The notes under the pieces were generated by a model. It made no database searches. It had not been told where the DNA came from and saw only the letters and a program-made list of their open reading frames with translations. Position numbers and translations under genes: made by a program. Below are positions 31,114-49,370 of a stretch of DNA of 64,000 nt, piece after piece. Source of the stretch: a virus; the IMG/VR virus record IMGVR_UViG_3300044782_000021, positions 1 through 64,000 of that record. One strand, written 5' to 3'. Every line of letters begins with the position of its first letter. The stretch's first letter is position 1.

Positions 31114-31271
31114 CCACCAGAACGCGCCTCCGCATCCTCGACGCCGCCATGCTGGTCGTGCTGGCCAGCCTCATCGCCATGGCCGCCGGCTGGTTCTGGG
31201 CCGTCATACCGCTGTTCGCCGCGTTCCTCGTCGGTATGGGCGTCGTTACCGGGTGGGGCGGACGGCGGTGA
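31110..31271 (+). CDS. small membrane protein (2 TM)
   Basis: 53 aa from GTG 31110 (GTGA overlap) in frame of ORF 30855..31271. Confidence 0.45.
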   Translation: MTTRTRLRILDAAMLVVLASLIAMAAGWFWAVIPLFAAFLVGMGVVTGWGGRR

Positions 31272-32962
31272 CCACGGCGGTGCTCCAGGCCGCCCACGAA
31301 GACGAAGAGCCGGCGCCGCAGTCCATCGCCGACCCGTACGATGAGCGCGCCAACTCCGAGACCTTCGACCTCACCGGCTGGCTGGCCGGCATCAATCCGG
31401 TCCTCCTGGAGACCACCGAAGGTCGCAAAGCCCTCACCATCGATGACCCGCTGCTGTTCGCATGCCTGTACCTGCGCAAACACCTCGTGTCCGAGGAGAC
31501 CGGCGGGATCACCCTCGCCGATTGTCACCTGGATTGGTTCCGGCTGGCCCGGGAGTGGACGATCCCGGACACGGGGCTCCGTGGGTGGCGACACAGCTTC
31601 GCCAGTCCAAGATCATCAGGGAAAAGCACTGCTTGGTACACGTTGATACCGATTTGGGCGGCTGCGCACGGCCACATCAAATTCATCGCCACCTTCGCCA
31701 ATGGCTCATCGCAGTCGGAGATGCACCTTCAGACGTTCCGCACTGAGGCGGCGCACAATCCGTTGCTGCGTGAGGATTTCCTGGATCTGTGCACCGCGAT
31801 TCGCAAGCCCACCGGGCGGACCGTGGCGGATAACGAGGGGATGTACCAATCGAAGGGCGGCTTTGTCTGGGTCGCGCGCGGCATTGATGTGGCCAGCCTG
31901 GGCATGAAAGTGGGTGACAGGCGGCCGGACGCGATCGTCCTCGATGACATCGAGAAAGATGAATCCCGCTACTCGCCGGGCGAGGTGGAGAAGCGTCGAA
32001 AGACGCTGATCGATGCCATCATGCCGTTGAACGAGCGGGCGAAGCTGGTGCTCGTTGGCACGGTGACGCGGCCCGGGTCGATAAACCACCAGCTAGTCAA
32101 AGTCGCTGTCGGCGAAGTAGATCCGGACAGCGAGGAGGGCCGGGACCTGGTCTGGATCAAGGATGAGCGCATCGTCCCGCATTACTACCCCCCGATTGTG
32201 GAGCGCCCGGACGGTAGCCGGCGGTCGATCTGGCCGGAGAAGTGGAGCCTCGAATACCTCGAAAGCATCGAACACACCAAGAATTACCAGAAAAACTTCA
32301 AAAACAACCCAAGGGCTGACTCTGGCGACTATTGGTCTGAAGATGACATTAGGTATTCGGAACTACCGAACGTCACGAAGACGTACCTCTTTGTTGATCC
32401 ACCGCTGACGGTGAAGACGAAGAGCGACCCGTGCGGCCTGGCGGTGCTCGGGTACGCGCCGGGGACCGGCGTGCGGGCGCCGCAGATGCGGGGGACTGGC
32501 GGCGGCACGCGGGAGGCGCTGTCTCTCGCCGAGTCGGAGAGCACGTTGCCGGCGCGGCTGTCGCGGGTGATCGTGAAAGACGCGTATGAGGTCAAGCTGA
32601 CCGGCACGCCGCTGAAGATGAAGATCCTTCAGATTCTCCAGGATTATCCGGAGATCTGCGCTGTTGTGCTCGAAAACAACGCAGGTGGGGATCTATGGGT
32701 TGAAATCATGACAGGCCTGCCGGTCAAATTTGTGACGTTTCCCTCAACTGAGCCGAAAGAGGTTCGGTTGGCGCGGGCGCTCGACTTCTACCAGAAAAGG
32801 CGCGTTGTGCACCGAAAGCGGATGCCGAAGCTGGAAGACCAGCAAACCGCCTATCCGCGTGTAGAGCATGACGATGTGGTCGATGCGGCATCAACCGGGA
32901 CAGTGCGGCTGCTGGCGCCGAAGCCGACCCCTAAGAAAAACCGGACTGTTACGCCGAGGTAG
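31253..32962 (+). CDS. terL: terminase large subunit
   Basis: 569 aa (alternative GTG 31268 with GTGA overlap); Walker A SPRSSGKST; Walker B AIVLDDIE; C-terminal nuclease-like region with acidic residues (HDDVVDA). Confidence 0.9.
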   Translation: MGRTAVTTAVLQAAHEDEEPAPQSIADPYDERANSETFDLTGWLAGINPVLLETTEGRKALTIDDPLLFACLYLRKHLVSEETGGITLADCHLDWFRLAREWTIPDTGLRGWRHSFASPRSSGKSTAWYTLIPIWAAAHGHIKFIATFANGSSQSEMHLQTFRTEAAHNPLLREDFLDLCTAIRKPTGRTVADNEGMYQSKGGFVWVARGIDVASLGMKVGDRRPDAIVLDDIEKDESRYSPGEVEKRRKTLIDAIMPLNERAKLVLVGTVTRPGSINHQLVKVAVGEVDPDSEEGRDLVWIKDERIVPHYYPPIVERPDGSRRSIWPEKWSLEYLESIEHTKNYQKNFKNNPRADSGDYWSEDDIRYSELPNVTKTYLFVDPPLTVKTKSDPCGLAVLGYAPGTGVRAPQMRGTGGGTREALSLAESESTLPARLSRVIVKDAYEVKLTGTPLKMKILQILQDYPEICAVVLENNAGGDLWVEIMTGLPVKFVTFPSTEPKEVRLARALDFYQKRRVVHRKRMPKLEDQQTAYPRVEHDDVVDAASTGTVRLLAPKPTPKKNRTVTPR

Positions 32963-33014
32963 GGTGATCGGGTTGCGACCATTCCCTCAGCGATTTCCAA
33001 GGTAGCGCCGTCAC

Positions 33015-33069
33015 AACAGCATGAAGCCCCTCAGCCGCTCCATATTCGGCTGAGGGGCTTCATGCTGTT
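33015..33069 (+). terminator. perfect 23-bp stem-loop between terminase and portal genes
   Basis: AACAGCATGAAGCCCCTCAGCCG 33015-37; 9-nt loop; exact complement at 33047-69; no U tract. Confidence 0.5.
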
Positions 33070-33124
33070 CGGCCTCGATTACCAATGGTACGGTTTGCCC
33101 AGCTCGTTACGGTGATGACGGAGT

Positions 33125-35116
33125 GTGACAATGGTTTCGCAAAGCACCCCCGGGCAACTCGCCAAGATCATCAAGGGCGGCCTGCCGGACCTCGTCATGT
33201 CCCGAAGCGCCGACGAGCGATCCATCGACCATATTCAGCGCGGCCTAACACAGCTCAAGAAGCAGCGCGAAGTCTGCGACCGCGCTGACGCGATGTACGA
33301 CGGCGATGTTGGCCTCACGTTCGCCTCTTTCAAGGTGCGCAGACTCCTCGCCAAACAAGGTGGCCTCGAAGAAATAGATGACTTCAATTACGCCCGGATT
33401 CCGGTCGACGTCATCGCCAACCGCCTCCAGATCGCAGCCGTCAAAGTCGCCCCGGCCGAAGAGAACGCCGACGACCAGACGACCAAGGAAAACGCGGCGG
33501 TCACGGCGGCCGAGAAGGCGATAGCCCGCCTCCGCAAGCGCAATGAACTCGACGCCGAAGAGAAGCGGTTGCACACCGACGTCTCCAAGCACGGCGAAGC
33601 GTTCGTCCTTGTCTGGCCCGTCACCGACGACGGCGGCAAAGTCATCGACGTCGATATGCGTGTCAACTCCGCGCACAACGTCGCGATGGTGTACGACGAA
33701 GAGGACTCTCTTCGCCCCGACTTCGTGATCAAATCGTGGACCGTCGATGTCAAGCGGAAGACCGTCGTCCGGGCCAACCTCTACTACTTCGGCGAGAAGG
33801 ATGGCCGCGTCGAGCGGTGGATGACCGAGCCCGGCGGCAACCCGGACGACGAGAAGGCCTGGCTCCGCGTCGCGAAGATCGCCGACGTCAGCGACGTCGA
33901 ATCCGAGGACATGGTCGACGTCGCCGAAGACGAGTTCACCGAGGAGGACGACGACGGTGAATCTCTCCTGGACGTCAACGACATTCCGAATCCGTGGGGC
34001 CAGGTGTGGTTTCACTTCCGCAACGGGCGTCCGTGCGGCCGGCCTGAACACGCGTCGGCGTACGGCCCGCAGACCCTCATTAATAAGTTGATCTATGCGC
34101 ATGCCGGCACGATCGACTACCAGTCGTTTCCGCAGCGGTATTTGCTGCAAGATCCGGCGATCGACGATCCGATGGTCAACTCGGAGGACCCGGACCACCC
34201 GGACGACGAAGAGGACGATCCGGAGACCGAGACCGGCAGCGCCGGACTCAAGGCGGACCCGGCGACCGTCTGGAAGCTTTGGGGCCGGTCGGTGGGCGAG
34301 TTCGCCGCTGCGGACCCGCAGATGTTTCTTGCACCGCTCGACCGCTACATCAAGAGCATGGCGGAGCTGACCGACATCCCTCAGTACGCGTTCAGTAAGG
34401 CGTCCGGCGACCTGCCGTCAGGTTCGGCGGTGCGCCAGTTGAACGGCGCCATGAACGCCAAGGTCAAAGACCGCCAGGACCGGTACGACCCGCAGTGGCA
34501 GGACGGATACGAGAAGGCCCTGACCATGCTCGGCATCTCGGGCGTGACCGTCGATGTCCGGTGGGAGCCGCCGGAGCTGATCAACGACCTTGACGGGTGG
34601 CAGATGCTGAAGGCCAAGCAGGATGCCGGAGTGCCGGGCTCGGTCACCCTGGAGGAGGCCGGCTACGCGCCGGAGCTGGTCGAAGAGTGGGGCCAGGACC
34701 TCGCCAACGCCAGCATCATCCAGCGGGTCGAGATGCTGGAGAAGATCGCGACCGCCGCGCAGGCGCTCGGCGCGGCCGTGGTCACCGGCTCCATTGCGGA
34801 TACGACGAGTCAGGCGCTGTTCGAGCGGCTGCTTCGCCTCACCGTGGAAGGCACCGAGGACATCGAGGACGCGGACAGCGTCGACCCGTTGCCGGTCGCC
34901 GAGTTCCGCGACCCACCCCCGGTCAATCCGGCCATGGCGCAAGCTGAGGCGGCCGGGGCGAATCCGCTCACGCAGGCGCAGATCGAGGCCACCAAGGCGT
35001 CTGCGGAGACCTCGCGGGCGTCGGCGAGGATGCTGAATGCCGGCGGCGGTTCCCCGGCGGACGGGCGGCAGCCGCCGCGCAAGACGGCCGGGCGCCGGCC
35101 GGCTGGGCGGCCGTGA
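33125..35116 (+). CDS. portal protein
   Basis: 663 aa (alternative ATG 33131 with GGAG RBS); position after TerL, size, acidic C-terminal region and SPP1-type portal-like N-terminal pattern. Confidence 0.85.
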   Translation: MTMVSQSTPGQLAKIIKGGLPDLVMSRSADERSIDHIQRGLTQLKKQREVCDRADAMYDGDVGLTFASFKVRRLLAKQGGLEEIDDFNYARIPVDVIANRLQIAAVKVAPAEENADDQTTKENAAVTAAEKAIARLRKRNELDAEEKRLHTDVSKHGEAFVLVWPVTDDGGKVIDVDMRVNSAHNVAMVYDEEDSLRPDFVIKSWTVDVKRKTVVRANLYYFGEKDGRVERWMTEPGGNPDDEKAWLRVAKIADVSDVESEDMVDVAEDEFTEEDDDGESLLDVNDIPNPWGQVWFHFRNGRPCGRPEHASAYGPQTLINKLIYAHAGTIDYQSFPQRYLLQDPAIDDPMVNSEDPDHPDDEEDDPETETGSAGLKADPATVWKLWGRSVGEFAAADPQMFLAPLDRYIKSMAELTDIPQYAFSKASGDLPSGSAVRQLNGAMNAKVKDRQDRYDPQWQDGYEKALTMLGISGVTVDVRWEPPELINDLDGWQMLKAKQDAGVPGSVTLEEAGYAPELVEEWGQDLANASIIQRVEMLEKIATAAQALGAAVVTGSIADTTSQALFERLLRLTVEGTEDIEDADSVDPLPVAEFRDPPPVNPAMAQAEAAGANPLTQAQIEATKASAETSRASARMLNAGGGSPADGRQPPRKTAGRRPAGRP

Positions 35117-36714
35117 TGGCCAGGTCGCGGCGGATCTTCCGGGAGGCTCAGCATCCGCGCGACGACCGGGGGCGCTTCGCACGCAAGGGTGGCGGCAAGT
35201 GGGTGGCCCGCGTTGTCCGGACCGCTGACGCTGGCTTCCTCGACACCGGACAGGCGCGGTCAGGGCTGCGTCAGGGCGGGCCGTCCGGACTGATCAATCT
35301 CGGACAGGTCCGGGAGGAGAACAAGCCGTGGGTGAAGCGTGCCGCCGACCGGATCGGCGAGCAGCGCGGCACCCTGAAGACCGCGCGTGACGTCTCGATG
35401 AGCAAAGATCAAATCCTGGTGGACGGAGTTTGGCGGACCGTCACCATGACCGGCTGGGGTGGCGGCAAGGATAAGCTTGGCTATCGCGATGACGATGACG
35501 TGTCGCGCGAGATCAGACTTGAGGCTGACGAGAAGATCGCCACCCGCCCGACAAAGATCGACTTCAGTGATCCGCTTCGTCCTGGTCAGGCCGCACGGAT
35601 GGCCGCCTGGCGGGCGAATGCCGCCGTACCGCCGCCGTTCCGCATGAGCACGGTCGAACTACCGTCGCCACGCGAGCTACGAGTTGCGGCGCTCGCCGTC
35701 GAGCGCGAGATGGCCGTTGCCACGTTGAAAGCCGCCCAGAGGTTCGCCAAAGCGCGGGCACGCCGCAAGTACCCGAACAGCGAGGGGTATGGCGCGTACA
35801 CCCGAGACTCCTACGTCGAAAACGAGACGCACCGGGAACAATGGGCTGTCAATTCGGTCGACAACCAGTTCCGATACCTCGCCGACAACGACAGCGACAC
35901 AGGAGACTGGAACGTGCGGCCCACCGGCATGGTCGCGGAGCTGATAGCGCCGCTCGATCCCGCGCGCCCCCTCGCGGTGTACGGCGACCTGATGAACATC
36001 GAGGGCGATGACCAGGCCACCTTCCGCCACCTCCGTGACCTTGAGCTGTTGCCCGCCGAGGCGCACGCCATCGTGGCCGCCGGCATGGCCCGGACGCGGG
36101 CCGAGAAAGGCAGTCCGTCCACGGGGGTCTGGCTGGGTTCCCGGTCGATCGCGGAACTGGACCACTCCGACGACCTGGCCAAAGAGCGCCCGCGAGGCTG
36201 GGACGAAGACAAGACGTGGAGCAATGTCGACGGGGTGTATCGGGGCACCACGCAGACGATGATCGCTGGAACCTCCGAAGTGTCCGCGAGCCGGGGCGAG
36301 CATGGTCAAGCAGCGTTGCATGAGTTCGGTCATGCGATCGACGACGAGATCGGTCAACGTCGGGCGTTGGCCGGGAAGCGCGGGGAGAGCGAGTCTCACG
36401 CCGGCCCTGAGTCGTTCTCCCGCGAGTGGGGCGACCTGTGGTCGCGTGTGGTCGCGGCGGCGCCTGATATGAGTCCGTACTTCAAGCAGGGCTTTCCGGC
36501 AGGCCAGCAAGAGTTGTGGGCCGAGGCGTTCGGCGAATGGTCGCGTGCTCGGGCCAGGGCTCGCAAGCGGGGCGAGCACCCTGACCTGATCTCGGTCGTT
36601 GGGCAGAACGCGTTCACACGGGAGTTCCGGATTCCGAAGGAAAACCGGGCACTGGCCATAGAGATGGACACCTATTTTCTTGGTGTCATGGAGCGATTCG
36701 GGGTGAAGCTGTGA
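35113..36714 (+). CDS. putative capsid-cargo protein with lethal-factor-like HExxH zinc metalloprotease domain
   Basis: 533 aa; N-terminal SRRIFREAQHPRDDRGRFARKGG leader; HEFGHAIDD at 36319-36345 and WAEAFGEW ~60 aa downstream mirror the anthrax LF motifs HEFGHAVDD ... EFFAEAF. Confidence 0.7.
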   Translation: MMARSRRIFREAQHPRDDRGRFARKGGGKWVARVVRTADAGFLDTGQARSGLRQGGPSGLINLGQVREENKPWVKRAADRIGEQRGTLKTARDVSMSKDQILVDGVWRTVTMTGWGGGKDKLGYRDDDDVSREIRLEADEKIATRPTKIDFSDPLRPGQAARMAAWRANAAVPPPFRMSTVELPSPRELRVAALAVEREMAVATLKAAQRFAKARARRKYPNSEGYGAYTRDSYVENETHREQWAVNSVDNQFRYLADNDSDTGDWNVRPTGMVAELIAPLDPARPLAVYGDLMNIEGDDQATFRHLRDLELLPAEAHAIVAAGMARTRAEKGSPSTGVWLGSRSIAELDHSDDLAKERPRGWDEDKTWSNVDGVYRGTTQTMIAGTSEVSASRGEHGQAALHEFGHAIDDEIGQRRALAGKRGESESHAGPESFSREWGDLWSRVVAAAPDMSPYFKQGFPAGQQELWAEAFGEWSRARARARKRGEHPDLISVVGQNAFTREFRIPKENRALAIEMDTYFLGVMERFGVKL

Positions 36715-36944
36715 GCGCGGTCGAGCCGTACCGGCGGGGCCGGATCATCGTCGCGCCCAAGCGGGCCGAGAACGACGAGGGCGACGTTGGGGTTGGCTGG
36801 GTTGACCTGAACCCGGGCGATCCGGAGTACGCCGAATGGGACCGGTATCTCAGCGCCTCGCCACCGATCGACGAGGTTCCGCAGGCGTCACCGCGCAGTG
36901 CCAGCCACCGCGCCGGCCGGCGCATTTTCAGGCGGCTGCCGTGA
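36711..36944 (+). CDS. hypothetical small protein ending in ...GRRIFRRLP
   Basis: 77 aa from GTG 36711 (GTGA overlap). Confidence 0.4.
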   Translation: MSAVEPYRRGRIIVAPKRAENDEGDVGVGWVDLNPGDPEYAEWDRYLSASPPIDEVPQASPRSASHRAGRRIFRRLP

Positions 36945-37774
36945 GTCGCGTCTGGGACGAGTCGAAGGTCGACCGGGACAAGTGGGGTCGGTTCGCCGAC
37001 AGCGAGAGCCGCATGGGCGTCGAGACGTGGATGCAGCGCGTCAGCGACGAGATGCGCCGCACCATCGATCGCGAGGACGCCGGCCACCAGGCGGGCCGGT
37101 GGCGCGTCCTGACCCCGGAACAGCAGCGGGTCACCTTGGCAAAGCAGATGTTTGACGGCGCGCTCGACGTGCAGCCTGACTTTGACAAGGCCGAGCTGCG
37201 CCGGCTGTGCCTGGAGGAAGCCGACAATCAGGTGTCGCCCGGTCAGCGCAACGACATCACGCTGACCAATGGCAAGGCCACGATCCGATCCAGCGATCCT
37301 CGGGTCAGGCTCGCCGAGCTGGAGGCGGTCGCCGCGCAGGTCGACGACCTGCACACCCGATTCCCCGCGCAGGGGCGGATGTCGATCGGGGTCTATACCG
37401 ACGATTTTCCGATGAGCCACGAGCACGCCGACGGGCAGACGATCCACGGCGAGGCGTTCATCCAGATCAAAGGCCGGGTCTGGGAGTCGGAGAAGACGGC
37501 TGCGGACGGGTTCATGCCCGCCCAGGACGATCACAGCCGCTGGGAATATGTGCTTGCGCACGAGTGGGGCCACGCGATCGACCACACGAGCCCGATGGAT
37601 CAGCTCATGGCGCAGTTCTCCGAGGGTTCCGTTGGGCTGTCGGCGTACGGGCAGGCGAGCCCGCGTGAGGCGTACGCGGAGGCTTTCGCGGAGTGGTACC
37701 TGACGAAGGGCCACACCACCAACAGCGCGGCGGTCTACTACGCCGAGAAGTTCGATTGGGGTGAGCCCTGGTGA
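36941..37774 (+). CDS. putative capsid-cargo protein with lethal-factor-like HExxH zinc metalloprotease domain
   Basis: 277 aa from GTG 36941 (GTGA overlap) in frame of ORF 36836..37774; N-terminal WDESKVDRDKWGRF leader; HEWGHAIDH 37559-37585 and YAEAFAEWY. Confidence 0.7.
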   Translation: MSRVWDESKVDRDKWGRFADSESRMGVETWMQRVSDEMRRTIDREDAGHQAGRWRVLTPEQQRVTLAKQMFDGALDVQPDFDKAELRRLCLEEADNQVSPGQRNDITLTNGKATIRSSDPRVRLAELEAVAAQVDDLHTRFPAQGRMSIGVYTDDFPMSHEHADGQTIHGEAFIQIKGRVWESEKTAADGFMPAQDDHSRWEYVLAHEWGHAIDHTSPMDQLMAQFSEGSVGLSAYGQASPREAYAEAFAEWYLTKGHTTNSAAVYYAEKFDWGEPW

Positions 37775-37962
37775 GCATCATCATCGCGGAGACGCCGGAC
37801 GGCGCGCGGGAGACCGACATGGTCGACCTGGGCGACGCGGCGCTGTCCGGATTCGTGCGGATGGGCAACGCCGACGCGATCCGGGAGTTCTGGCGGCGCA
37901 AGCTCGCACCACGGCGCCGTGCCAGCCGCCGCATCTTTGACACCTCACGTGACAAGCGGTAG
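37771..37962 (+). CDS. hypothetical small protein ending in ...SRRIFDTSRDKR
   Basis: 63 aa; GTGA overlap; stop inside promoter 37937. Confidence 0.4.
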   Translation: MSIIIAETPDGARETDMVDLGDAALSGFVRMGNADAIREFWRRKLAPRRRASRRIFDTSRDKR

Positions 37963-37965
37963 CGT
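37937..37965 (+). promoter_or_regulatory. sigma-A-type promoter, conserved family, leaderless configuration, inside the structural module
   Basis: -35 TTGACA 37937-37942; spacer CCTCACGTGACAAGCGG; -10 TAGCGT 37960-37965; ATG 37973 is 8 nt downstream. Confidence 0.6.
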
Positions 37966-37972
37966 GGTGACC

Positions 37973-38428
37973 ATGACCTCACGCCGTGCCCGCGTCGCCG
38001 TCCGTCCGCCCTGCGCACCCACCGGCCTACCGGCGCCCGCGCCGAGCACCGACGCCGGCCGGTGCGCGTGCGGTGACCTCCTGCGCCACAAGCCCAATGG
38101 GGCCGGAGAATGGACGACCGTCTCCGTGGTCACTGGACTGGCACATGTCGATCAGGCGCCGCAGGCCCTGCGCGACGATCCCGCGAAATGGTGGGCCGAC
38201 CTCGCCGAGCATGACATCCGGTCGTATTCCGTCCTGAAAGCGGCTGTCGACCTCGGGTACTGGTCGTGGTATCACATCCATCGCACGGAGGCCGGTACCG
38301 CGCCGGCTCACACCGGTACGACGCCGTTCTGCTGCGGCTCGCCGATGTGGGCCGCACCGGACGGCTGGGTGTGCCGGGTCGCCGGCTACACCACGATCCG
38401 GCGACCGTACGCGGAGGTAGGCGCATGA
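37973..38428 (+). CDS. hypothetical Cys-containing protein (leaderless)
   Basis: 151 aa from ATG 37973 in frame of ORF 37919..38428. Confidence 0.55.
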   Translation: MTSRRARVAVRPPCAPTGLPAPAPSTDAGRCACGDLLRHKPNGAGEWTTVSVVTGLAHVDQAPQALRDDPAKWWADLAEHDIRSYSVLKAAVDLGYWSWYHIHRTEAGTAPAHTGTTPFCCGSPMWAAPDGWVCRVAGYTTIRRPYAEVGA

Positions 38429-39252
38429 GCGGGTTTTGGCACGAAGAGGATCATCACCGGGACGATATGGGCCGGTTCACGGAGTCATCTATGGGGGCGT
38501 GGGCGGCGAAGATCGCTCAGCGGATGGCTGATTTCCGCAACAGCGCCCGCAACGACGCCGAACGGATAGGACTGGCGTTCTACAAGGGATTCCGGCCGCC
38601 AGGGTTTGAGGCTGCCAAGAAGCGGCATAAGGAGCTTGATCAGGCATATGTTGACCGGAAACTAACTGATCAAGAGCTGCTCGAACTGAAGACGCTCGAT
38701 GATGCGTTTGACGAATTGGTCAAGCTCATTGGTCACAAGAACTCTCTTAGGTTCGACGCCTATGGAGAGACCCGACCGCATGACATCGAGCCCGCCGCGT
38801 CCCGAATGGGTTACCGGCGAGTTGGCAACCACCCGGAAGGCGTGGGAGGTCCAGAAGGACCCGACGACAACTACTTAAGTCGTAGCTCCCATCCGCTGGC
38901 CGGCGGCCTGTGGATCGATCCGGACCGGCCGGGCACCCGCCATGCTCCGGCGTATCGCAACGATGCCGGACACATTGTGTCGGACCTTCGGGCGGAACCA
39001 CATCGGACCGCTACGCATAAGCGGAATCGTCAGTCGCGGCGTCGTGAGGACTGGACGCATACCCCCGATGACATGGAGCGGCTGCACGAAAGCGAGGGCG
39101 GCAAGATCGGCTATCGCGAAGAGGTCACTTCGGAGTTTCTCGCCTGGGTGAAACGAGCTAAGGCCCGCACTCGCGCCGAGGCACCGCCGCAAACGTGGAT
39201 CTTGCAGGTCAACGATAGATTCGAGCAACGAAGGGATCGGCGCCGTGGCTAA
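38425..39252 (+). CDS. putative capsid-cargo protein (HRDD..GRF leader)
   Basis: 275 aa from ATG 38425 (ATGA overlap) in frame of ORF 38266..39252; N-terminal FWHEEDHHRDDMGRF. Confidence 0.6.
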   Translation: MSGFWHEEDHHRDDMGRFTESSMGAWAAKIAQRMADFRNSARNDAERIGLAFYKGFRPPGFEAAKKRHKELDQAYVDRKLTDQELLELKTLDDAFDELVKLIGHKNSLRFDAYGETRPHDIEPAASRMGYRRVGNHPEGVGGPEGPDDNYLSRSSHPLAGGLWIDPDRPGTRHAPAYRNDAGHIVSDLRAEPHRTATHKRNRQSRRREDWTHTPDDMERLHESEGGKIGYREEVTSEFLAWVKRAKARTRAEAPPQTWILQVNDRFEQRRDRRRG

Positions 39253-42200
39253 GAGGTCGAGGCGGATCTTCCGCGAAAAGGATCACCCGCGCGATGATCG
39301 TGGCCGGTTCGCCGAGAAGGCCGGCGGTCGGTGGCTGGGTCGCGTTGTGCGCCAGCATGAGGCCGGCTTCGGTGACACCAGCGCGGCACAGCCGGGCATG
39401 CGCTCCGGCCGGCTGGGCGGCGGCGTGCTCGACCTGGGCGCGATCAGCCGGGGCAACGCCGGGTTCAACCGGCCGACCGCGCAGCGGCGGGACACGCTGA
39501 GCGCGTCCGGGGTGGCCGGGTTCATGGCGCAGCCGACCAAGAAGGCGCTGACCGTGCCGAAGGTCACGGAGGCGGACATTCGCGAACGCCTCAGGGAGGC
39601 TGAGGACGCTGTAGCCATGCTCGATGGCGACAGCAACACTCGGGTATCTCGCGCCGCGCATGCGGAGCTGATCGAGGCCCGCCAGATGATGAAGGACGCC
39701 GGGTTTGAGCTGGCGCCCGCGCGGCGGCGGTTCGGCCGGGCTATCCCGGAGTCCGAAGCCAAGGCGCCGGAGTCGACCGGCTCGTTCCTGGAGCGGCAGG
39801 CCGCGAAGGTCGCGGCGGCGCGGGCCGCCGGCAAGGCGACCACACCAAAGAAGGCGGTCGCCGAGCGCCAGGGGCCGGACCTGCGCAACCTGATGCGGGA
39901 CAAAGGCATTGATCCGCCGCCGCTCCTGGACGCGAACCAGGAGCTTGACCGGGCCAACAACCGGCTGGCGCGCGGCGACGATCCGAACCTGGTGGCCCGG
40001 AAGCTCCGGGACGCGGCCGACAGCATTGAGCTGCGGGCCGACCAGGAAGGTGGCCCCGACGAAGACAGTGTCGAGCGTAACCAGGCGAAGCAGAGCGCCC
40101 GCTCACTGCGCCGGGCGGCCGGCACGCTTGACGGTGGTGAGGACACGAAGCTACCGGCGTTCATGGAGAAAGCCAACGCCGACATCGCGAAGAAGCTCGG
40201 TCAGACTCAGGTTGACACGTCCCGTGACACGGGGAAGACTGGAGGGGTGACTACCGATGCGGACAAGATGCTTGCCCTCGATCTTGCGGATATGCGCGAA
40301 CAGGCGCCCCACGCTGCCGATCAGCTTGCCAAGGCTCGCGAGGTACTGAAGAGGCAGAAAGCGCGAACCGTGGCGGCGTACGGAGCTGACCGCGACCGGT
40401 GGCCCTCAAACGCGGATCAGTCGATCAGGGTGGAGGAGAAGCGCGTAGCGGATGCCGAAGAGGCGGATCGCAGCGCTCGCGAATACCTCGCCGAACTGGA
40501 GGCTAAGGCCGGTCAGCGCGACAGCGGCGGCACGGTCATTCCCGAGCCAGTCAAGGCGATCCCCTCCACATGGCGGGTCGCACTCTCCAAGATTGACGCG
40601 TCCGAGGTCGGTAAGGGCCGAGGTCTGTCCCCGGGAGAGATCTCCGTACCGGTACGACAGAAGCTCTTCGCCGCCGGCCTCTACGAGGTCCGCAAGGACG
40701 GTACCGGCTACCTCGGACCCCGCGAATACCTGCACCTCACCCCCGCCGGCCACGACGCCCTTAAGGCTGCCGATGGCGAGAAGTACGACCGGCGGCGGGT
40801 CGACGTCGCCGCGAAGACGGAACGGGACGCGGCCAGGAAGGCGGCCGACACCGAGAAGGCCGCCGTCCAGCGGGCCGCCAGCGAGGAGCGTGGCCGGAAG
40901 GTCGAAGCGCAGGCCATCGCCGAGGGTCTTGACCCACTCGCCGCCCGCCTCGGTGGCATCGAGGCCGCCCGCAAGCAGCGTGACGACAAGGCCGCGCAGG
41001 CGGCGGCCGAGCAGGAGATCGTCCTTGGTCGTGGCATTCCCACGTATGTGCCTGGCCAGGGAGCCCGTAACGGCGAGAGCTACGGCGCTGCCCTTCAGCG
41101 AATCATCAAGTTGGGCAAGGAACTTCAGAAGGACGACTTCCCGATCGAGGAGGCCCGACCGGTTGTTTCCGTCCACGCGCGCAAATATGTGGACTCGATG
41201 CAGGCTGTTGACGCCGCGTACAACGACGTTTTCGCGGCTGAGCATCGCCGCGATTACCTGGCCACTATCGCCGGGATTGAGGGCGACTCCGCGTACGGGG
41301 TCAGGGTCAAGGCGGCTGACGACGCCGTTGACGCCGCCCGGGCCACGCTCGGCGAGCGGCTTGATGCCGCCGACGCGGCCCGGGTGGCGTTCGGCGACGC
41401 GGTCATCGGCTTGTACGCCGGCAAGGGCCGGAAGAAGTCGCTCGCCGCTCTTAAACTGCCGATCGTCATCGAGGGCACCAACCACAGGACCAGTCTCGCC
41501 GACCGGATCGCCGGCAAGGTGCCGGCGGACAGCGTCGGCCCTGAGGCGGACGCGGCGCGGCGCGCGGTGCTCGCCCGGCTGCGCGCCGAGGACCAGATCA
41601 AGATCGAGAAGCATGCGGCAGCGTTGCTCCGGGCGAAGGCGTATGGCGTCGAGCGGGACATCCCGCACCTTTCCGGCGACCCGGAGGCCCGCAGTGAGGC
41701 CCGCGCCAAGATGGGTGCACTGAACCGGCAGGGCGGCGAGGCCGAGGGGCGCGCTCGCGACCTGAGCGCCGGCCTGCGCAACATGACGATGACCGAAGAG
41801 AAGGCGCTCGCCGACCTGGCGGCCGTCAAGCCGACGTTCACGCCGCTGCGCGACCCGGACCGCAACAGCAAGGAGGGCCTCGCCCTGTCCCTGCGCTCCG
41901 TGCCGGGCAACAGCCTCGCCGCGACCGCCGCCGACCTGGAGAGCGGCGACATCGGCTACATGCAGGCCGCCGACAAGGTCAGCCAGTTCGGGCGGTCGCT
42001 CGGCGGCCGGACTATGTCCGAGCTGAACCGCACCGCCCTCGCCGAGCTTGAGAGCCGGCTCCGCGCGGCTGGCACCGCCGACCTCGCCCCGAAGGTGCCC
42101 ACGGTGGCTGCCGGGTCCAGCGAGGCCGCCTACGCCGGCATGAAGCGGTCTAGCCTCCTCGCGATCGCCCGGATGAAGGGAATCAACCCACGCGGCAAGG

Positions 42201-44545
42201 ACAACGGCGCCCTTGCGGGGGAGATTGCCGCCCACGACGCGGCACAAGGTGGCGTCAAGGAGGTTCCGGCCGTGGCCCCGGATTCCAAGCGGATCACCCG
42301 CGCGGAGTTCGATGTCCTGCCGGTCGAGCAGCGTGATAGGATCGTCGCCGAGCTACGCAAGATCATCGACACCAACGATCAGGTGTCGAAGACCATCCCG
42401 AGCAACCGCACTAGCATGGGGACCACGATCCGGACTACGGTCTCCGCGCCGTGGGTCGAGCAGGCCAAGGAGAAGCTGCGCGAGCTGACGTACACCGCAC
42501 CGCCGCCGGTCGACTACTCCGTGGGCGGCAAGGCGAGCCGGCTCAGCGCGGCGAGCAACGCCGGAGAGGCCCGGAGCATTCTCAGCGGGTCGACGATGGC
42601 GGATCTTGACGACATCGGTCGGTTGAGCGGGCTCGGGCGGGTGATGACGTCCTGGAAGCGTGACAAGGCCGTTGACTACCTGGTGAACCGGGCGGTCGCC
42701 GGGGACCGGATGCCGACCGACTACTCCACCGACAGCATTGCGGATGCGCTCCGGGGTGCCAGCGCCGAGCAGGCTCTTGCGGTGCTCGACGCGATCGAAA
42801 CTGACCGAGGTATCAGTAAGGCTGAGCTTCAGGCGGTTGCGACGAGCCTCGGTGTCGGAAAGCTGACCGGGGACAAGCGGGCGACGATGCACGCCTTGGC
42901 GGGGAAGGCGGGTGGTGCTGGCCCAAAAGCACCTGAGGCCCGAACCGACACGCCTCGCGACATCGGTGGCATGGTGGAGCTGCTGTCCTTCGGCATAGAC
43001 CGACCAAAGGACGGCTACGACGCGCACGGCGACACGCTCCGGCCTGGCGACATCGCGACTATCGGCTCCGACCGGCACAACCGCACCGACGAACAGGTTG
43101 AGGTGCTCGACGTCGGGATCGGTAAGCAGGGTGGTTCGGCGCTCGCCACAGTGCGATACGCCAACGGCGACCGGGAACAGATCCTCATGGGCAATCTGGT
43201 GCGAACCAAGCCGGTCGGGGTCCGCTACCTGGAGTCGCTCCGCGTCGAGCTTGCCGGCAACGAGCGGGCCGGCATGACGTTGCGTGGAAAGCCCTCCACA
43301 CTCGATGCGCTGCGCGAGGCGACAGGCAAGGGCATGAGCCACTACGCGGCTGCGGTGCTCAGGCGCGAGGCGGGCAGGCACAAGGGTCAGCCGCTCGCCG
43401 ATCGGCTCACGCAGGCGGCGGGCGATATCGAGAAGCTGATCTTCAGTACGAAAGATCCCGAGATCTTGCGGCGCGCGACGGGTGCCGACCCAAAAGCACC
43501 GGTTGACACCACAAGTGACAAGAGCCAGACTGGTGACATGACCCCCGTCGCAAAGACCATCAGTGTTCCTGTCGCGCTTTCCTCTCGTACCCGCAACTAC
43601 AACATTGAGGGACCGAGCAGGGCACAAGCGGTCAAGATGGCTACACTGCGTCAGCGTCACCTGACGGATGCGGAGACCGCTCGTCAGCGAGGTGACGATG
43701 ACGCCGCATTCTCGAAGGATGAGCAGGCGTTTGATCTTGAGACTGATCTGCGTCGGTTTGGGTTCAATGTCGATACGGGTAGGCCGGACCCCAAGGCCGC
43801 GAAGGATCAGCGGGAGAAGGATCGTTCGCGTCGCACGTTCGCGGATAGTCTTCGGGCCGGTGGTGGTGCCGGCCTAAAAGCACCTGAGGCCCGAACCGAC
43901 ACACGTAATCAGGTGGGTGCACGACCTCTCTCCGGCTTGCCTGCCGACCTGAAGGTCATCGGCGTCGGCGGCGTCGCCGAGGACAAGCGGGTCGCTGACA
44001 AGCCGGCACCGCCGACCGCCGAGGAGAAGGCAGCCGCCAAGACCGCCAAGGTTGAGGCTGAGCGTGCCGCCGCCAAGGTCCGCGACGAGGAGTGGACAAA
44101 GCGGCGGGTCGCTGAGATCAAGCGCCGGCTCGACGACGGCCAGACCGAAACCCTCGGCGGCGTCACCGACGCGGGGGTGCTCGCGCTGGCCCGGGAAGTC
44201 GGCGTGCCGATTCCGGCGCGCAAGGCGGACCGGGGCGGCCTGAAGGCGGCCATCATCGACAAGATCCGTAGCGGCGAGTCCGGCGGGCAGGACAGGTCGG
44301 CGGGGTCGGCCCATTGGACCGGCCTCGCCAACAAAGTCATGAACCTCGGCAGCCGCGAAGAAGCCGCAGCCGAGATGCGCGACCTGACCATTCCTGAGCT
44401 GCGCATGCTGGCCAACGCCATGCGTGAGGGCGGCGTCGCCATCGTGGGCGGCACCAGTAAGGCCGCTATCATCCGGGCGCTCGTCGAATACGCGGTTGGC
44501 CGGCGCCTCGATGCCGACGCGATCAGTCGTGTCGGCCTTCGGTAG
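39245..44545 (+). CDS. giant (1766 aa) coiled-coil protein with HPRD..GRF leader and multiple HeH (SAP/Rho-N-like) motifs
   Basis: The N-terminal 60 aa are paralogous to the 35113 gene (SRRIFREKDHPRDDRGRFAEKAGG). Long A/E/K/R-rich regions. HeH-like segments include RSSLLAIARMKGINPRGKDNGALAGEIAAH, GVLALAREVGVPIPARKADRGGLKAAIIDKI and TIPELRMLANAMREGGVAIVGGTSKAAIIRAL. Contains internal KAPEARTDT repeats. Confidence 0.8.
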   Translation: MAKRSRRIFREKDHPRDDRGRFAEKAGGRWLGRVVRQHEAGFGDTSAAQPGMRSGRLGGGVLDLGAISRGNAGFNRPTAQRRDTLSASGVAGFMAQPTKKALTVPKVTEADIRERLREAEDAVAMLDGDSNTRVSRAAHAELIEARQMMKDAGFELAPARRRFGRAIPESEAKAPESTGSFLERQAAKVAAARAAGKATTPKKAVAERQGPDLRNLMRDKGIDPPPLLDANQELDRANNRLARGDDPNLVARKLRDAADSIELRADQEGGPDEDSVERNQAKQSARSLRRAAGTLDGGEDTKLPAFMEKANADIAKKLGQTQVDTSRDTGKTGGVTTDADKMLALDLADMREQAPHAADQLAKAREVLKRQKARTVAAYGADRDRWPSNADQSIRVEEKRVADAEEADRSAREYLAELEAKAGQRDSGGTVIPEPVKAIPSTWRVALSKIDASEVGKGRGLSPGEISVPVRQKLFAAGLYEVRKDGTGYLGPREYLHLTPAGHDALKAADGEKYDRRRVDVAAKTERDAARKAADTEKAAVQRAASEERGRKVEAQAIAEGLDPLAARLGGIEAARKQRDDKAAQAAAEQEIVLGRGIPTYVPGQGARNGESYGAALQRIIKLGKELQKDDFPIEEARPVVSVHARKYVDSMQAVDAAYNDVFAAEHRRDYLATIAGIEGDSAYGVRVKAADDAVDAARATLGERLDAADAARVAFGDAVIGLYAGKGRKKSLAALKLPIVIEGTNHRTSLADRIAGKVPADSVGPEADAARRAVLARLRAEDQIKIEKHAAALLRAKAYGVERDIPHLSGDPEARSEARAKMGALNRQGGEAEGRARDLSAGLRNMTMTEEKALADLAAVKPTFTPLRDPDRNSKEGLALSLRSVPGNSLAATAADLESGDIGYMQAADKVSQFGRSLGGRTMSELNRTALAELESRLRAAGTADLAPKVPTVAAGSSEAAYAGMKRSSLLAIARMKGINPRGKDNGALAGEIAAHDAAQGGVKEVPAVAPDSKRITRAEFDVLPVEQRDRIVAELRKIIDTNDQVSKTIPSNRTSMGTTIRTTVSAPWVEQAKEKLRELTYTAPPPVDYSVGGKASRLSAASNAGEARSILSGSTMADLDDIGRLSGLGRVMTSWKRDKAVDYLVNRAVAGDRMPTDYSTDSIADALRGASAEQALAVLDAIETDRGISKAELQAVATSLGVGKLTGDKRATMHALAGKAGGAGPKAPEARTDTPRDIGGMVELLSFGIDRPKDGYDAHGDTLRPGDIATIGSDRHNRTDEQVEVLDVGIGKQGGSALATVRYANGDREQILMGNLVRTKPVGVRYLESLRVELAGNERAGMTLRGKPSTLDALREATGKGMSHYAAAVLRREAGRHKGQPLADRLTQAAGDIEKLIFSTKDPEILRRATGADPKAPVDTTSDKSQTGDMTPVAKTISVPVALSSRTRNYNIEGPSRAQAVKMATLRQRHLTDAETARQRGDDDAAFSKDEQAFDLETDLRRFGFNVDTGRPDPKAAKDQREKDRSRRTFADSLRAGGGAGLKAPEARTDTRNQVGARPLSGLPADLKVIGVGGVAEDKRVADKPAPPTAEEKAAAKTAKVEAERAAAKVRDEEWTKRRVAEIKRRLDDGQTETLGGVTDAGVLALAREVGVPIPARKADRGGLKAAIIDKIRSGESGGQDRSAGSAHWTGLANKVMNLGSREEAAAEMRDLTIPELRMLANAMREGGVAIVGGTSKAAIIRALVEYAVGRRLDADAISRVGLR
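40212..40240 (+). promoter_or_regulatory. promoter-family motif inside the giant gene (weak -10)
   Basis: TTGACA 40212-17; spacer CGTCCCGTGACACGGGG; AAGACT 40235-40; in-frame GTG 40247 is 7 nt downstream. Confidence 0.3.
42911..42951 (+). repeat. 41-bp direct repeat, copy 1 (pairs with 43862-43902)
   Basis: GGTGGTGCTGGCCCAAAAGCACCTGAGGCCCGAACCGACAC; 27-bp core identical, 2 mismatches overall; copies 951 bp apart (in frame); encodes GGAG.KAPEARTDT. Confidence 0.85.
43503..43531 (+). promoter_or_regulatory. full promoter-family motif inside the giant gene, leaderless configuration on an in-frame ATG
   Basis: TTGACA 43503-08; spacer CCACAAGTGACAAGAGC; CAGACT 43526-31; in-frame ATG 43538 is 7 nt downstream. 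Confidence 0.45.
43862..43902 (+). repeat. 41-bp direct repeat, copy 2
   Basis: GGTGGTGCCGGCCTAAAAGCACCTGAGGCCCGAACCGACAC. Confidence 0.85.
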
Positions 44546-44550
44546 TCACG

Positions 44551-45504: not shown

Positions 45505-45507
45505 CGC

Positions 45508-45536
45508 TTGACACCTCAGGTGACAAGTATTAGGCT
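45508..45536 (+). promoter_or_regulatory. sigma-A-type promoter, conserved family
   Basis: -35 TTGACA 45508-13; spacer CCTCAGGTGACAAGTAT; -10 TAGGCT 45531-36. Confidence 0.65.
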
Positions 45537-45575
45537 CGACCTGCAAACAGTTGAGGACGAGCCAGGGGAGCACCG

Positions 45576-46115
45576 ATGACCACCACCGTCGAAGCGCCGG
45601 TCACCACCGTCGAGCCGAAGACCTGGACGATCGCCTACCGCAGGCGCACCGCCAACCGCTTTCAGCGGGTCACCAACTGGTCCGGCACCTGGGCTGAGGC
45701 GCGGGAGATGGCTGGTGCGTTCGGCGAGCTGTACCCCGATCTTCAGGTGTGGTACACCATGACCGCCGCTCATGAGCAGGCCGAGACCATCCGCCTCGCC
45801 GCCAAGGTCGCCAGCGGTGAATATGATCAGGAATTCGCTGACCGCTACCTCGAAGACCACCGGAACATCATGGTCGACTCCGGCAAGCGCATCGCCATCC
45901 GCGAGACCGGCAACCTTCCCGCCGAACTGCTCGACGCCGACGCCATGAAGGTCGCGGGCGAGATGCTCACCCCCACCGTGCCCGCGTTTTCGACCTGGAT
46001 CGCCTGTCTTGACTGGGCGGGCGACGTGCGCACCAATCACCCGGCCATCTTCGCCGACATGGTCCGGGACTCCCGCACCGCCGACGAGCGCTACTCCGCG
46101 AGCTGTACCCGATGA
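45576..46115 (+). CDS. hypothetical protein
   Basis: 179 aa; GGGGAG RBS; first gene after promoter 45508. Confidence 0.65.
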   Translation: MTTTVEAPVTTVEPKTWTIAYRRRTANRFQRVTNWSGTWAEAREMAGAFGELYPDLQVWYTMTAAHEQAETIRLAAKVASGEYDQEFADRYLEDHRNIMVDSGKRIAIRETGNLPAELLDADAMKVAGEMLTPTVPAFSTWIACLDWAGDVRTNHPAIFADMVRDSRTADERYSASCTR

Positions 46116-46255: not shown

Positions 46256-46257
46256 TC

Positions 46258-46596: not shown

Positions 46597-46601
46597 TGAC
46601 C

Positions 46602-46865: not shown

Positions 46866-46896
46866 GCTTACCCCACCCAGCAGGGTCATCGGGAAC

Positions 46897-47007: not shown

Positions 47008-48054
47008 GTGACGACCACACTAGTCAAGCCTGGGCGTATCGCCCTGTTCAGTGCATACACCCCCATTGGTTATACCTCGCACGGTCCGGTCTACCCGGTC
47101 GGCGGCGGCCGGTCCGGCGGCGGATTCGAGTTCATCGTCGGCGACGATGGCGGCGACGACCCCGAGTTCGACGACGAAGACCACGACGACGACGATGACG
47201 ACGATGACAATGACGCCGAGCTGCCCGCGTCGATGCGCGCCCGTAAGCCGGCGCCGCCCAAGAAGCGGACCCGCAGCGGACCCGCCGATCAGGACGACGA
47301 CAGTCAGGGCGATGCGGCCGAGGGGGACGACGGTTGGGCGCCACCCACGCAAGAGGCGTGGGAGAACATGGAAGCCGCGCTCGGAAAGGCCAACCGGGAA
47401 GCCGCCCGCCGCCGCCGCGTCGGAAAGGTGCTGGACCAGCTTCAGATTCCGCCCGGTCAGGAGATGGAATGGTTCCGTGAGCGCGGAATCGACCCGGACA
47501 CCGGCCGTCGCGTCCTGGCCGACGGCAACGACGATGACCTCCTCGCGGATGGACCTGACGAGGGTGAGCCCGACCAGGACGATGACGCGCAGGGCGACAA
47601 GCCCGGCGACAAGCAGAGCCGCTATACCAAAGCCGACGTCGAGCGCGCCGCGATCCGCGCCGAGAACCGTGCCACGCAGCGGTACGAGGGCCTGGCGATG
47701 GAGCTGGCCGCCGAGAATGCCATCCGGGCCGCCGGCTGGAACGGCACCAAGATTGAAACCGCGTTGAGGTTTGTCGATGCCCGTGAAATTGAGGTGACCT
47801 TCGATGACGAGGGCCGCGCCGTATTCCTCGGGCTTGACGAGCAGGTCGACGACATGAAAGCCGAGTTCCCCGACTGGTTCCGGGTCAAGAAGACCGCCGC
47901 CACGTCCGGTGGCCAGTCGGCCGTCCGGCGCCGCACCGGCAGCAACGGCGCCTCCGCCGTGGACGGCGGGGACCGTGGTCGCAGCACGCCGGCACCGGTC
48001 GGCTGGCTACAGCAGGCGAGTCAGCAGATTGACGGGCGCACCCGGCGCCGTTGA
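47008..48054 (+). CDS. capsid scaffolding protein (putative)
   Basis: 348 aa from GTG 47008 (AAAGGGGAGGAAA RBS); extremely acidic poly-D/E tracts plus helical region; immediately upstream of the major capsid gene. Confidence 0.65.
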   Translation: MTTTLVKPGRIALFSAYTPIGYTSHGPVYPVGGGRSGGGFEFIVGDDGGDDPEFDDEDHDDDDDDDDNDAELPASMRARKPAPPKKRTRSGPADQDDDSQGDAAEGDDGWAPPTQEAWENMEAALGKANREAARRRRVGKVLDQLQIPPGQEMEWFRERGIDPDTGRRVLADGNDDDLLADGPDEGEPDQDDDAQGDKPGDKQSRYTKADVERAAIRAENRATQRYEGLAMELAAENAIRAAGWNGTKIETALRFVDAREIEVTFDDEGRAVFLGLDEQVDDMKAEFPDWFRVKKTAATSGGQSAVRRRTGSNGASAVDGGDRGRSTPAPVGWLQQASQQIDGRTRRR

Positions 48055-48197: not shown

Positions 48198-48290
48198 CTC
48201 CATCCCGCGACGGGCAATAGTCGGCTTCCCATTACCTCGCTCGTGACGAGCAATCGAATTCCCCGATTGTGTGCGAGCGAAAGGAAGCCA

Positions 48291-49370
48291 ATGACGCACA
48301 CCAACGCCGCACTTCTTTGGGATGTGCAGCCCGACCGCGATACCGATCCCCTCGCCCTTCCCCGCCTGCTCGGCACCACGCGCAGCGGTCGCCCCGTCTG
48401 GTCCGTCGCCGGTGGCGCGATCATCAACGTGGACGAGTGGATTCCGATCGAGTACTCCTCGGAAGTCGTTCAGCGCGTCCTAACGGAGTCGGTGATCGAA
48501 TCCAGCGCTAAGCGCGTGATCATGAACTCCAAAACGAAGTCGATCCCGCGCTCGGCCGGCATCACCGTCTCGGCCGGTACCACGTACGTCGATGACGCGT
48601 CGACCAACGACGAGATCACCCTGACGGCGCGGCGCTTCATCGCCCGCCTCAAGATCGATGAGGATGACCTGGCCGACGCCAACACCCGTCTCGACGTGCT
48701 CGGGACCAAGGCGCTCGACTGGGCGATCTCCTATGCCGACGTGTTCGACAACGCGTGCTTGGGCGTCACCGCGACCGAAACCGGCACCTCCGTGGCGCCG
48801 TTCACCTCCGCGTACAAGCGGATGCGGACCACGAACGCCGACACCAGCTACACCGCCGACGCCAACTATCTGACGTGGGACGACGACAACCCGGCGATCT
48901 CTACCACGCCAGACGGCACGTCGCTGTACGAGAAGCTATCGGCCACCTTCAAGAAGGTGGAAACCGGCAAGTACTGGTCCCAGTCCGACGCGCTGGTTAT
49001 CGCGCACCCGGGCTGGCGCGACGCGCTCCGGCTGTGCATGGACGCCCAGGGCCGACCCATCTTCCAGCCGGGTACCGGCAACCGGCTGCCGGGCAACGGC
49101 ACCCCGGACCAGCTCTTCAACACCGACATCCGTTGGTCGCGTGGCTGCCGGACCAGCCCAACCAACACCGGCAGTCCGACCGGCAACGACCTGCTCTACT
49201 ACCTGAACCGTCGGTACCTCGCCCGAGGCGACCGGTCCGGGCCGGAGACGCTGACCGACGACGCGCGGGCGCAGGACGACACGGACGACTACGCGATGAA
49301 GTTCAGGACGCGTCGCGCGTTCCAGCTTACGCACGAGGCCGCGTGTGCCGTACTGGAGCGGGTCGACTAA
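48291..49370 (+). CDS. major capsid protein (HK97 fold)
   Basis: 359 aa from ATG 48291 (AAAGGAAG RBS) in frame of ORF 48243..49370; position, size and Phage_capsid-like sequence pattern. Confidence 0.85.
   Translation: MTHTNAALLWDVQPDRDTDPLALPRLLGTTRSGRPVWSVAGGAIINVDEWIPIEYSSEVVQRVLTESVIESSAKRVIMNSKTKSIPRSAGITVSAGTTYVDDASTNDEITLTARRFIARLKIDEDDLADANTRLDVLGTKALDWAISYADVFDNACLGVTATETGTSVAPFTSAYKRMRTTNADTSYTADANYLTWDDDNPAISTTPDGTSLYEKLSATFKKVETGKYWSQSDALVIAHPGWRDALRLCMDAQGRPIFQPGTGNRLPGNGTPDQLFNTDIRWSRGCRTSPTNTGSPTGNDLLYYLNRRYLARGDRSGPETLTDDARAQDDTDDYAMKFRTRRAFQLTHEAACAVLERVD

Follow-up and report, generated by a model that had tools for sequence, protein, structure and literature searches.

Predicted lethal-factor-type zinc proteases in the head module of a phage, and the N-terminal motif they share with their neighbours

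What would proteases resembling anthrax lethal factor (LF) be doing among the genes with which a phage builds its head? The question is raised by a phage-like contig, IMG/VR virus record IMGVR_UViG_3300044782_000021, of which we analysed positions 1 to 64,000 (this whole stretch of 64,000 nucleotides is called the window below; 65% guanine plus cytosine, GC). Downstream of its portal gene, two genes that we call P1 and P2 encode the strings HEFGHAIDD and HEWGHAIDH, in which a first-pass annotation, made from the sequence alone, had seen a pair of LF-like HExxH zinc metalloprotease domains. We find that P1 is a lethal-factor-type gluzincin, a member of the Pfam ATLF family by that family's curated threshold, and that P2, to judge by profile evidence, is a divergent gluzincin of the same type. 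Both are predicted from their sequences to be zinc endopeptidases of the LF and Pro-Pro-endopeptidase (PPEP) type, and are probably catalytically competent; as to their function, we lean towards proteases that are carried inside the capsid and reach the cell together with the DNA. Both also begin with a short motif, here called the leader, that they share with two neighbouring proteins and with several hundred others in sequence databases.

On translation both strings proved to lie where they had been reported, in two real genes (Table 1): the frame of P1 is that of JGI protein P0001 (100% identity), and the start of P2 at 36941 agrees with that of a 277-amino-acid (aa) homologue of 91% identity. 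P1 passes the gathering score of ATLF (PF07737; 28.9 bits against 27.4), the only Pfam family that it matches with an E of 1 or less. Its AlphaFold (AF2) model, with a predicted local distance difference test (pLDDT) score of 80.5 overall and above 90 over most of residues 268–533, retrieved from the PDB by Foldseek first PPEP-3 (9g0j; E 6.3e-5, probability 1.0, TMt 0.58) and next about 25 LF entries (best E 2.8e-4), with no other fold under E 0.1. Searched against the PDB, a profile of the P1 family returned PPEP-3 (9g0j; 1.4e-6), PPEP-1 and LF (1.9e-4), its sole further match being myroilysin, another zinc protease, at E ~5–7. Profiles were needed here, since single-sequence phmmer searches of the PDB gave only noise for P1 and, for P2, PPEP-1 at E 0.23. 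By the model, P1 runs from the leader (residues 9–30) through a disordered stretch (41–83), a beta-barrel (87–146), a helix and strand (157–182) and long helices (186–258) to the protease domain (268–533). We considered whether its N-terminal half might be a divergent MuF domain and rejected the idea: that half has no Pfam match at E up to 1, and its only fold matches are weak ones to beta-barrels (HEX-1/eIF5A-like).

For P2 the assignment draws on the family rather than the single protein. The P2-family profile matches LF in the PDB at 2.2e-5, and a broader profile of P2-type domains, built from 21 IMG/VR relatives plus P2, does so at 1.4e-11, laying HEWGHavD on HEFGHAVD and S-YG-tN--E-YAEaF on TSYGRTNEAEFFAEAF of LF. 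The P2 model (pLDDT 83.6) comprises the leader (residues 5–30), three helices (28–97) and a protease domain (~100–277) in which the zincin core is present; against BFVD it matches a 180-aa viral 'Lethal factor' protein (E 5.6e-3, probability 1.0, TMt 0.58) and also a 543-aa 'Minor capsid protein' (probability 1.0). Pfam ATLF itself directly matches 3 of 27 P2-type open reading frames (ORFs), the best at 1.3e-7, and the P1 and P2 families align to each other by hhalign at 95.7–96.4% probability. In neither protein do Pfam and NCBIfam reveal a MuF domain or any other second recognisable domain. The first-pass view that both regions are LF-like is supported by these profile and fold searches, which lead to the LF/PPEP zincin fold and to nothing else. 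Of the two outcomes that the annotation had named as refuting it, assignment to a non-protease fold and a lack of conservation at the histidine and glutamate positions, neither came about.

The predicted active sites are complete in both proteins. Zinc would be bound by the two histidines of HExxH, which sits in predicted helices (residues 400–420 in P1 and 200–212 in P2), and by a glutamate 36–64 residues downstream, with the HExxH glutamate acting as general base. The downstream glutamate-containing strings that had been read as supplying the third ligand are indeed there, the relevant residue following the first histidine by 64 aa in P1 (H403–E467) and by 36 aa in P2 (H207–E243). That reading stands, with a refinement as to which glutamate is meant: by alignment to LF the ligand is the first of E-x-x-A-E-x-F (E467, E243), and the glutamate inside 'AEAF' (E471, E247) occupies the position of LF E739. 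The residues used for comparison are Y728, E735 and E739 of LF and Y178 of PPEP-1; in these enzymes the catalytic tyrosine (Y728, Y178) stands seven residues before the glutamate ligand. A candidate catalytic tyrosine precedes the ligand in each protein. In P2 it is Y236, seven residues before E243 and aligned to 'SYG' of LF; in P1 it is Y456, 11 residues before E467 and separated from that ligand by a four-residue insertion relative to LF, conserved in 16 of 17 sequences and replaced by histidine in the remaining one.

Conservation and sequence statistics both bear on these sites. The two families are small and metagenomic: of 5.8 billion sequences, 17 belong to the P1 family and 16 to the P2 family. 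Across the P1 family (32–45% identity) H403, E404, H407, D410, E467 and E471 are invariant, and across the P2 family (26–91% identity) so are H207, E208, H211, D214, Y236, E243 and E247, the HExxH-D residues of P2 being invariant also in the wider P2-type alignments. In a six-frame translation of the window, HExxH alone occurs 8 times against 4.6 expected, whereas HExxH...E-x-x-[AS]-E-x-[FLYW], the signature that combines both elements, is found at the P1 and P2 sites and nowhere else, two occurrences against a mean of 0.01 in 200 dinucleotide-preserving shuffles.

The surroundings of P1 and P2 are those of a classical head-tail module. From the portal gene onward the order is portal, P1, a 77-aa ORF, P2, two small ORFs, P3, P4, a 317-aa protein, scaffold and capsid; 3' of the capsid gene follow a major tail protein and an 827-aa tape measure protein, as in a long-tailed phage. 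The portal stop and the P1 start overlap by 4 nucleotides (nt), and neighbours from the portal to P4 overlap by 4–8 nt with one exception of 44 nt (37919–37962; ORF calls), which marks a compact unit whose genes are probably coupled in translation. NCBIfam has no match for any protein of the cassette. The 77-aa ORF matches no family and resembles no known immunity family, and may serve P1 as a partner, an inhibitor or an immunity protein. P3 has no recognisable domain in family searches; nor has P4, which is rich in Ala, Arg and Gly and in which we noticed a duplicated element, GGAG[PL]KAPEARTDT, at residues 1228 and 1545 (window ~42926 and ~43877).

Table 1. Positions in the window of the two predicted proteases, their active-site strings and leaders, and the neighbouring head-module genes.
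Feature	Position	Strand	Evidence or remarks
Large terminase	31253-32962	+	phrog_38; start of classical head-tail module
Portal, 663 aa, SPP1-type	33125..35116	+	Pfam SPP1_portal 1.4e-12; phrog_104 1.5e-46
P1, 533 aa	35113..36714	+	Pfam ATLF; phrog_4415 'peptidase'; AF2 model
P1 leader, F9-W30, FREAQHPRDDRGRFARKGGGKW	35137..35202	+	Regular expression and hidden Markov model matches
P1 protease domain, aa 268-533	35914..36711	+	AF2; Foldseek; profile against PDB
P1 HEFGHAIDD	36319..36345	+	Predicted zinc ligands H403, H407; general base E404; conserved D410
P1 downstream string PYFKQGFPAGQQELWAEAFGEW	36475-36540	+	Translation
P1 PYFKQGFPAGQQELWAEAF	36475..36531	+	Y456, candidate catalytic Tyr; E467, third zinc ligand by alignment; E471
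77-aa ORF between P1 and P2	36711..36944	+	49-51% identity to ORFs after P1 homologues in L001 and L003
P2, 277 aa	36941..37774	+	16-member family; AF2 model; profile against PDB
P2 leader, W5-W30, degenerate copy, WDESKVDRDKWGRFADSESRMGVETW	36953..37030	+	Regular expression and alignment
P2 HEWGHAIDH	37559..37585	+	H207, E208, H211, D214
P2 downstream string SAYGQASPREAYAEAFAEWY	37640-37699	+	Translation
P2 SAYGQASPREAYAEAFA	37640..37690	+	Y236 = LF Y728; E243 = LF E735, zinc ligand; E247 = LF E739
P3, 275 aa, leader-tagged	38425..39252	+	Leader 38437-38502; homologues in L001 and L005
P4, 1766 aa, leader-tagged, core gene of the clade	39245..44545	+	Leader 39269-39334
317-aa protein	44551-45504	+	Weak 'head morphogenesis' PHROG match
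Scaffolding protein, separate gene	47008..48054	+	Pfam Phage_scaffold 4.4e-6, under gathering score; same gene in L001 and L003
Major capsid protein, HK97 fold family	48243..49370	+	Pfam Phage_capsid 29.9 bits against 24.2; phrog_10

Neither megablast of positions 33000–40000 nor tblastn of P1 and P2 found a near relative of the window among 50,697 phage records, a collection that contains no close relative in culture. In the long contigs of the P1 clade (L001, L002 and L003) the P1 homologue lies directly 3' of the portal wherever the position can be read, followed in L001 and L003 by a small conserved ORF, a giant leader-tagged protein of 1853–2064 aa that is the counterpart of P4, the 317-aa protein, scaffold and capsid. 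By this conserved order P1, the 77-aa ORF, P4 and the 317-aa protein are core genes of the clade, whereas P3 occurs in some members and P2 in none but the window and one further contig. P2-type domains turn up here and there in unrelated phages of 39–71% GC. P1 is a core gene of a phage clade, and P2 a mobile accessory module. L001 and L002 (751–2466) also carry, upstream of the terminase region, a 571-aa protein with a TROVE (Ro60-like) domain. Outside phages, the nearest relatives of the P1 protease domain are proteins of 284–1078 aa from Nocardia, Nocardiopsis and an uncultured actinomycete, which fits a pool of domains shared with bacterial polymorphic toxins. A genome scan yielded no prophage of the P1 clade; what it found, in Nocardia, Nocardiopsis and an actinomycete metagenome-assembled genome, was the protease domain alone, so that the host can be given only as a probable high-GC bacterium.

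The company kept by P2-type domains bears on function. Among 27 complete P2-type ORFs in IMG/VR, six are fused to MuF domains, two to portal domains, two to ADP-ribosyltransferases and two to zeta toxins; one protein, P0031, is laid out as a MuF domain, the leader motif and a P2-type domain. In an unrelated phage, L004, a P2-type protein directly follows a portal of a different type. No other indirect evidence speaks as strongly as these fusions for a domain that is carried in the capsid together with the portal/MuF complex.

The leader was the second feature to which the first-pass annotation had drawn attention, as a 'cargo leader' carried by both proteases; it is real, and two neighbours share it. 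The pattern W/F-x-E-x-x-H-P-R-D-x-x-G-R-F...W occurs four times in the whole window, each time at an N-terminus, and so heads every large member of the cassette (P1, P2, P3 and P4), with only small ORFs between them; within the P1 family E11, H14, P15, R16, D17, G20, R21, F22 and W30 are invariant. A leader profile of 37 positions, searched against 1.84 billion representative proteins, matched 587 at E up to 0.001. The best matches are giant proteins of 1000–7334 aa, in which the motif recurs about once per 150–400 residues, giving 3–15 copies per protein at a per-domain E below 0.05 (HMMER counts as many as 19 matched stretches in one protein). Taken together, 489 copies give the consensus [AK][DE][WF][DN]E-x-x-H-P-R-D-x-x-G-[RKQ]-F-[AT], followed by a stretch rich in Gly, Ser and Ala. 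These carriers, in which MuF, ART-PolyVal, ADPrib_exo_Tox, Zeta_toxin and GNAT domains are found, are what Iyer et al. 2017 (PMC5512222) called polyvalent proteins. No Pfam family covers the leader, and a literature search under several spellings found no published description of it. Against the PDB the profile's only match, non-significant at E 1.6, covered 13 residues of 9rku, a baseplate protein from phage 7-7-1; we treat it as chance.

Leader and protease appear, from their distribution in sequence databases, to be independent of each other. No leader lies within 10 kb in 38 of 46 P2-type protease loci in IMG/VR, and among about 145 leader-rich proteins only 10–13 have an ATLF-type domain, although HExxH overall is enriched in such proteins (63 observed, 11 expected). 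The thought that the protease might be a dedicated leader-cutting enzyme was marked down for this reason, the two elements being independent in most loci and proteins. Several other arrangements deserve record. One protein of 1576 aa (P0059) has four tandem ATLF-type domains, with HEIGHAVDY, HELGHALDH, HELGHAIDQ and HELAHAIDF, and a leader copy precedes three of the four. The cultured Streptomyces phage Gilgamesh (MN234216.1, L061; 2979–16853) encodes, directly after a 'portal and MuF-like fusion protein', the 4624-aa hypothetical protein gp48, which starts with one leader copy, KWNPALHPRDSKGRF, and has no HExxH. In an unrelated high-GC phage (L025, IMGVR_UViG_3300017605_000880; ~4166–16108), five leader-tagged ORFs surround an SPP1-type portal, among them a zeta-toxin/AAA_33 kinase (4166–5086), and a P2-type protease ORF (9803–10666), its own leader at most degenerate, adjoins them. 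With this phage there are two cases of a cargo cassette in split form. The window is the other: in effect a polyvalent protein divided into separate genes, each of which has kept its tag. It works like such a protein without being one, as P1 and P2 have one enzymatic domain each and multi-domain or MuF-bearing forms occur only in their relatives.

What, then, would the two enzymes do? It is somewhat probable, we think, that they are cargo of the capsid. Proteins such as P1 and P2 would be loaded into the procapsid near the portal, in the manner of SPP1 gp7 and other MuF-type minor head proteins, and the leader may, by analogy, be the tag that directs them there; they would leave the capsid together with the DNA; and soon after the start of infection they would cleave proteins of the host or cargo delivered alongside them. 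This account builds on what the sequences and models show: the fold of a protease, active sites conserved within each family, the order of the genes, a motif in common, and P2-type domains fused in other phages to MuF, portal and toxin domains. Published work points the same way: zincin peptidases with HHpred similarity to LF are the commonest (hub) domain of phage polyvalent proteins (PMC5512222), a metallopeptidase is present in 20% of MuF toxins (PMC5576092), and virion proteomics of phi24B detected a polyvalent protein with a metallopeptidase domain (bioRxiv 10.64898/2026.04.10.717836).

Several points weigh against it. Packaging, delivery, catalytic activity and substrates are all things that we infer. 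The database checks proposed in the first-pass annotation came out well for P1, by the Pfam score and the significant PPEP-3 and LF fold matches given above, and less well for P2, which on its own has no Pfam match with an E of 1 or less, and whose model, searched by Foldseek against the PDB, ranks LF and PPEP-2 first at a non-significant E of ~0.8. No Pfam MuF domain was found among the genes of 33125–49370, nor in the same region of L001 and L003, and the nearest approach to one in the window is the weak PHROG match of the 317-aa protein. Finally, P1 is conserved at full length as a core gene, and a structural or assembly role fits this better than a diversifying effector would.

That last point leads to a serious rival for P1, weaker than packaging and delivery and on the whole unlikely: P1, and perhaps P2, would be a head-internal processing protease that replaces the prohead protease and acts on the scaffold, on P4 or on leader-tagged cargo, itself included. 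It is favoured by what is missing from the head module, where no gene of 33125–49370 matches an S78/U35, ClpP-like S14 or T4 gp21-type prohead protease in Pfam or PHROG and where none is detectable between the portal and capsid genes of L001 and L003 either; by the place of P1, which is the classical protease position after the portal; by the 73% identity of the P1 and P4 leaders; and by the earlier proposal that zincin domains autoprocess polyvalent proteins before or after packaging (PMC5512222). Yet L004 has its P2-type protein alongside a normal Peptidase_S78 prohead protease, and a cut made specifically at the leader sits poorly with the 38 leaderless P2-type loci and with the roughly 130 of 145 leader-rich proteins that have no ATLF-type domain. 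The scaffold, moreover, has a separate gene, and the capsid protein has no N-terminal extension of delta-domain size (its Pfam match runs from residue 67 of 375); systems of the SPP1 and P22 type, with a separate scaffold, require no protease. A bolder form of the same idea, which we consider improbable, would make P1 a new class of head protease, a gluzincin that has replaced the prohead protease and, once the leader-tagged cargo (itself, P2, P3 and P4) has been loaded, processes it at or near the motif, the motif then being a widespread, hitherto undescribed signal for capsid targeting and processing that also delimits the modules of polyvalent proteins.

A doubtful alternative again sees in P1 and P2 polymorphic-toxin weapons of a temperate phage, turned against competing bacteria or serving lysis-lysogeny control; the 77-aa ORF would then encode an inhibitor or an immunity protein. 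The actinobacterial proteins closest to the P1 protease domain would suit it, as would the small conserved ORF that always stands 3' of P1; lethal-factor-like peptidases are among the catalogued toxin domains of polymorphic toxins (PMC3482391), and roles of this kind have been proposed for MuF toxins (PMC5576092). But P1 is not polymorphic, being a conserved core gene of fixed architecture, the 77-aa ORF is unlike any known immunity family, and no integrase or other evidence of lysogeny turned up, though none was sought.

It is highly improbable that the domains instead help the ejection machinery across the envelope, where they might, for instance, open a conduit by cleaving its proteins or the cross-links of its peptidoglycan. 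PPEP enzymes cleave surface adhesins, which counts for such a role, and the authors of the phi24B study suggested it for the metallopeptidase domain of the virion protein gp47 (bioRxiv 10.64898/2026.04.10.717836). However, the characterised relatives that P1 and P2 match are all protein endopeptidases, with no cell-wall hydrolase among them. The phage has a long tail, moreover, with a tape measure protein, the kind of protein that usually carries envelope-penetrating functions. That the strings are chance occurrences of HExxH, or relics in non-catalytic structural proteins, is refuted as far as sequence analysis reaches: HExxH alone is common, but the extended signature is not, the catalytic residues are invariant down to 26% identity, and the fold and profile matches are specific to LF and PPEP.

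If P1 and P2 are indeed packed and delivered, they belong to the proteins that enter the cell with phage DNA, the earliest of a phage's weapons to confront it, few of which have been studied; small and stand-alone as they are, they should be far easier to express and mutate than the giant polyvalent proteins in which such domains usually occur. The lead most worth pursuing is the leader, a testable candidate for an 'address label' of cargo modules in hundreds of polyvalent proteins. Were it to prove one, cargo could be predicted from sequence, and foreign proteins could be loaded into capsids by design.

Set beside the enzymes that define their fold, a group we take to be MEROPS family M34, P1 and P2 have, as predicted from alignments and models, the helix HE[FW]GHA[IV]D, the downstream helix S-Y-G-x-x-x-x-E-x-[FY]-A-E-A-F and the zincin alpha/beta core of LF and PPEP-1, PPEP-2 and PPEP-3, with identity of only 12–18% outside the active site. 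Unlike LF, neither has a protective-antigen-binding domain or a secretion signal. P1 differs from LF and the PPEPs in the four-residue insertion between tyrosine and glutamate and in a 64-residue insert between the two helices, and both phage proteins differ from them in being encoded in a head module and in carrying a phage-specific N-terminal motif.

For the leader the nearest parallels are functional. The capsid-targeting sequence of T4, found on internal proteins and Alt, and the binding of SPP1 gp7 to the portal both route non-structural proteins into the procapsid, to be ejected later. The leader has no sequence similarity to these, and inside giant proteins it is found internally as well, with one copy to each module. 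In T4 the prohead protease gp21 cuts off the tag; no such protease is evident in the window.

Closer in kind are the metallopeptidase domains of polyvalent proteins, such as the N4 virion RNA polymerase and DdrB of phage P1 (PMC5512222), which are likewise encoded in virion modules and LF-like at the level of HHpred, and which share with our proteins an aspartate three residues after HExxH and an association with MuF, ART and other effector domains. Iyer et al. described their 12 clades as not specifically related to zincin clades defined earlier (PMC5512222), whereas P1 of the window is assigned to Pfam ATLF itself, and in the window the leader-tagged genes stand separately. The MuF polymorphic toxins (Jamet et al. 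2017, PMC5576092) lie directly downstream of the portal, as does our P1; in contrast to them, P1 and P2 have no MuF domain, P1 is conserved, and no immunity gene can be recognised. Domains of this type, located in the virion modules of phages and with such roles proposed for them, are thus already known from the literature, to which P1 and P2 add new and unusually compact members. Less ordinary are three features of the locus: a protease of this type that is a core gene in a clade lacking a canonical head protease, the adjacency of two stand-alone enzymes, and the unannotated leader with which both begin and which ties their cassette to hundreds of polyvalent proteins.

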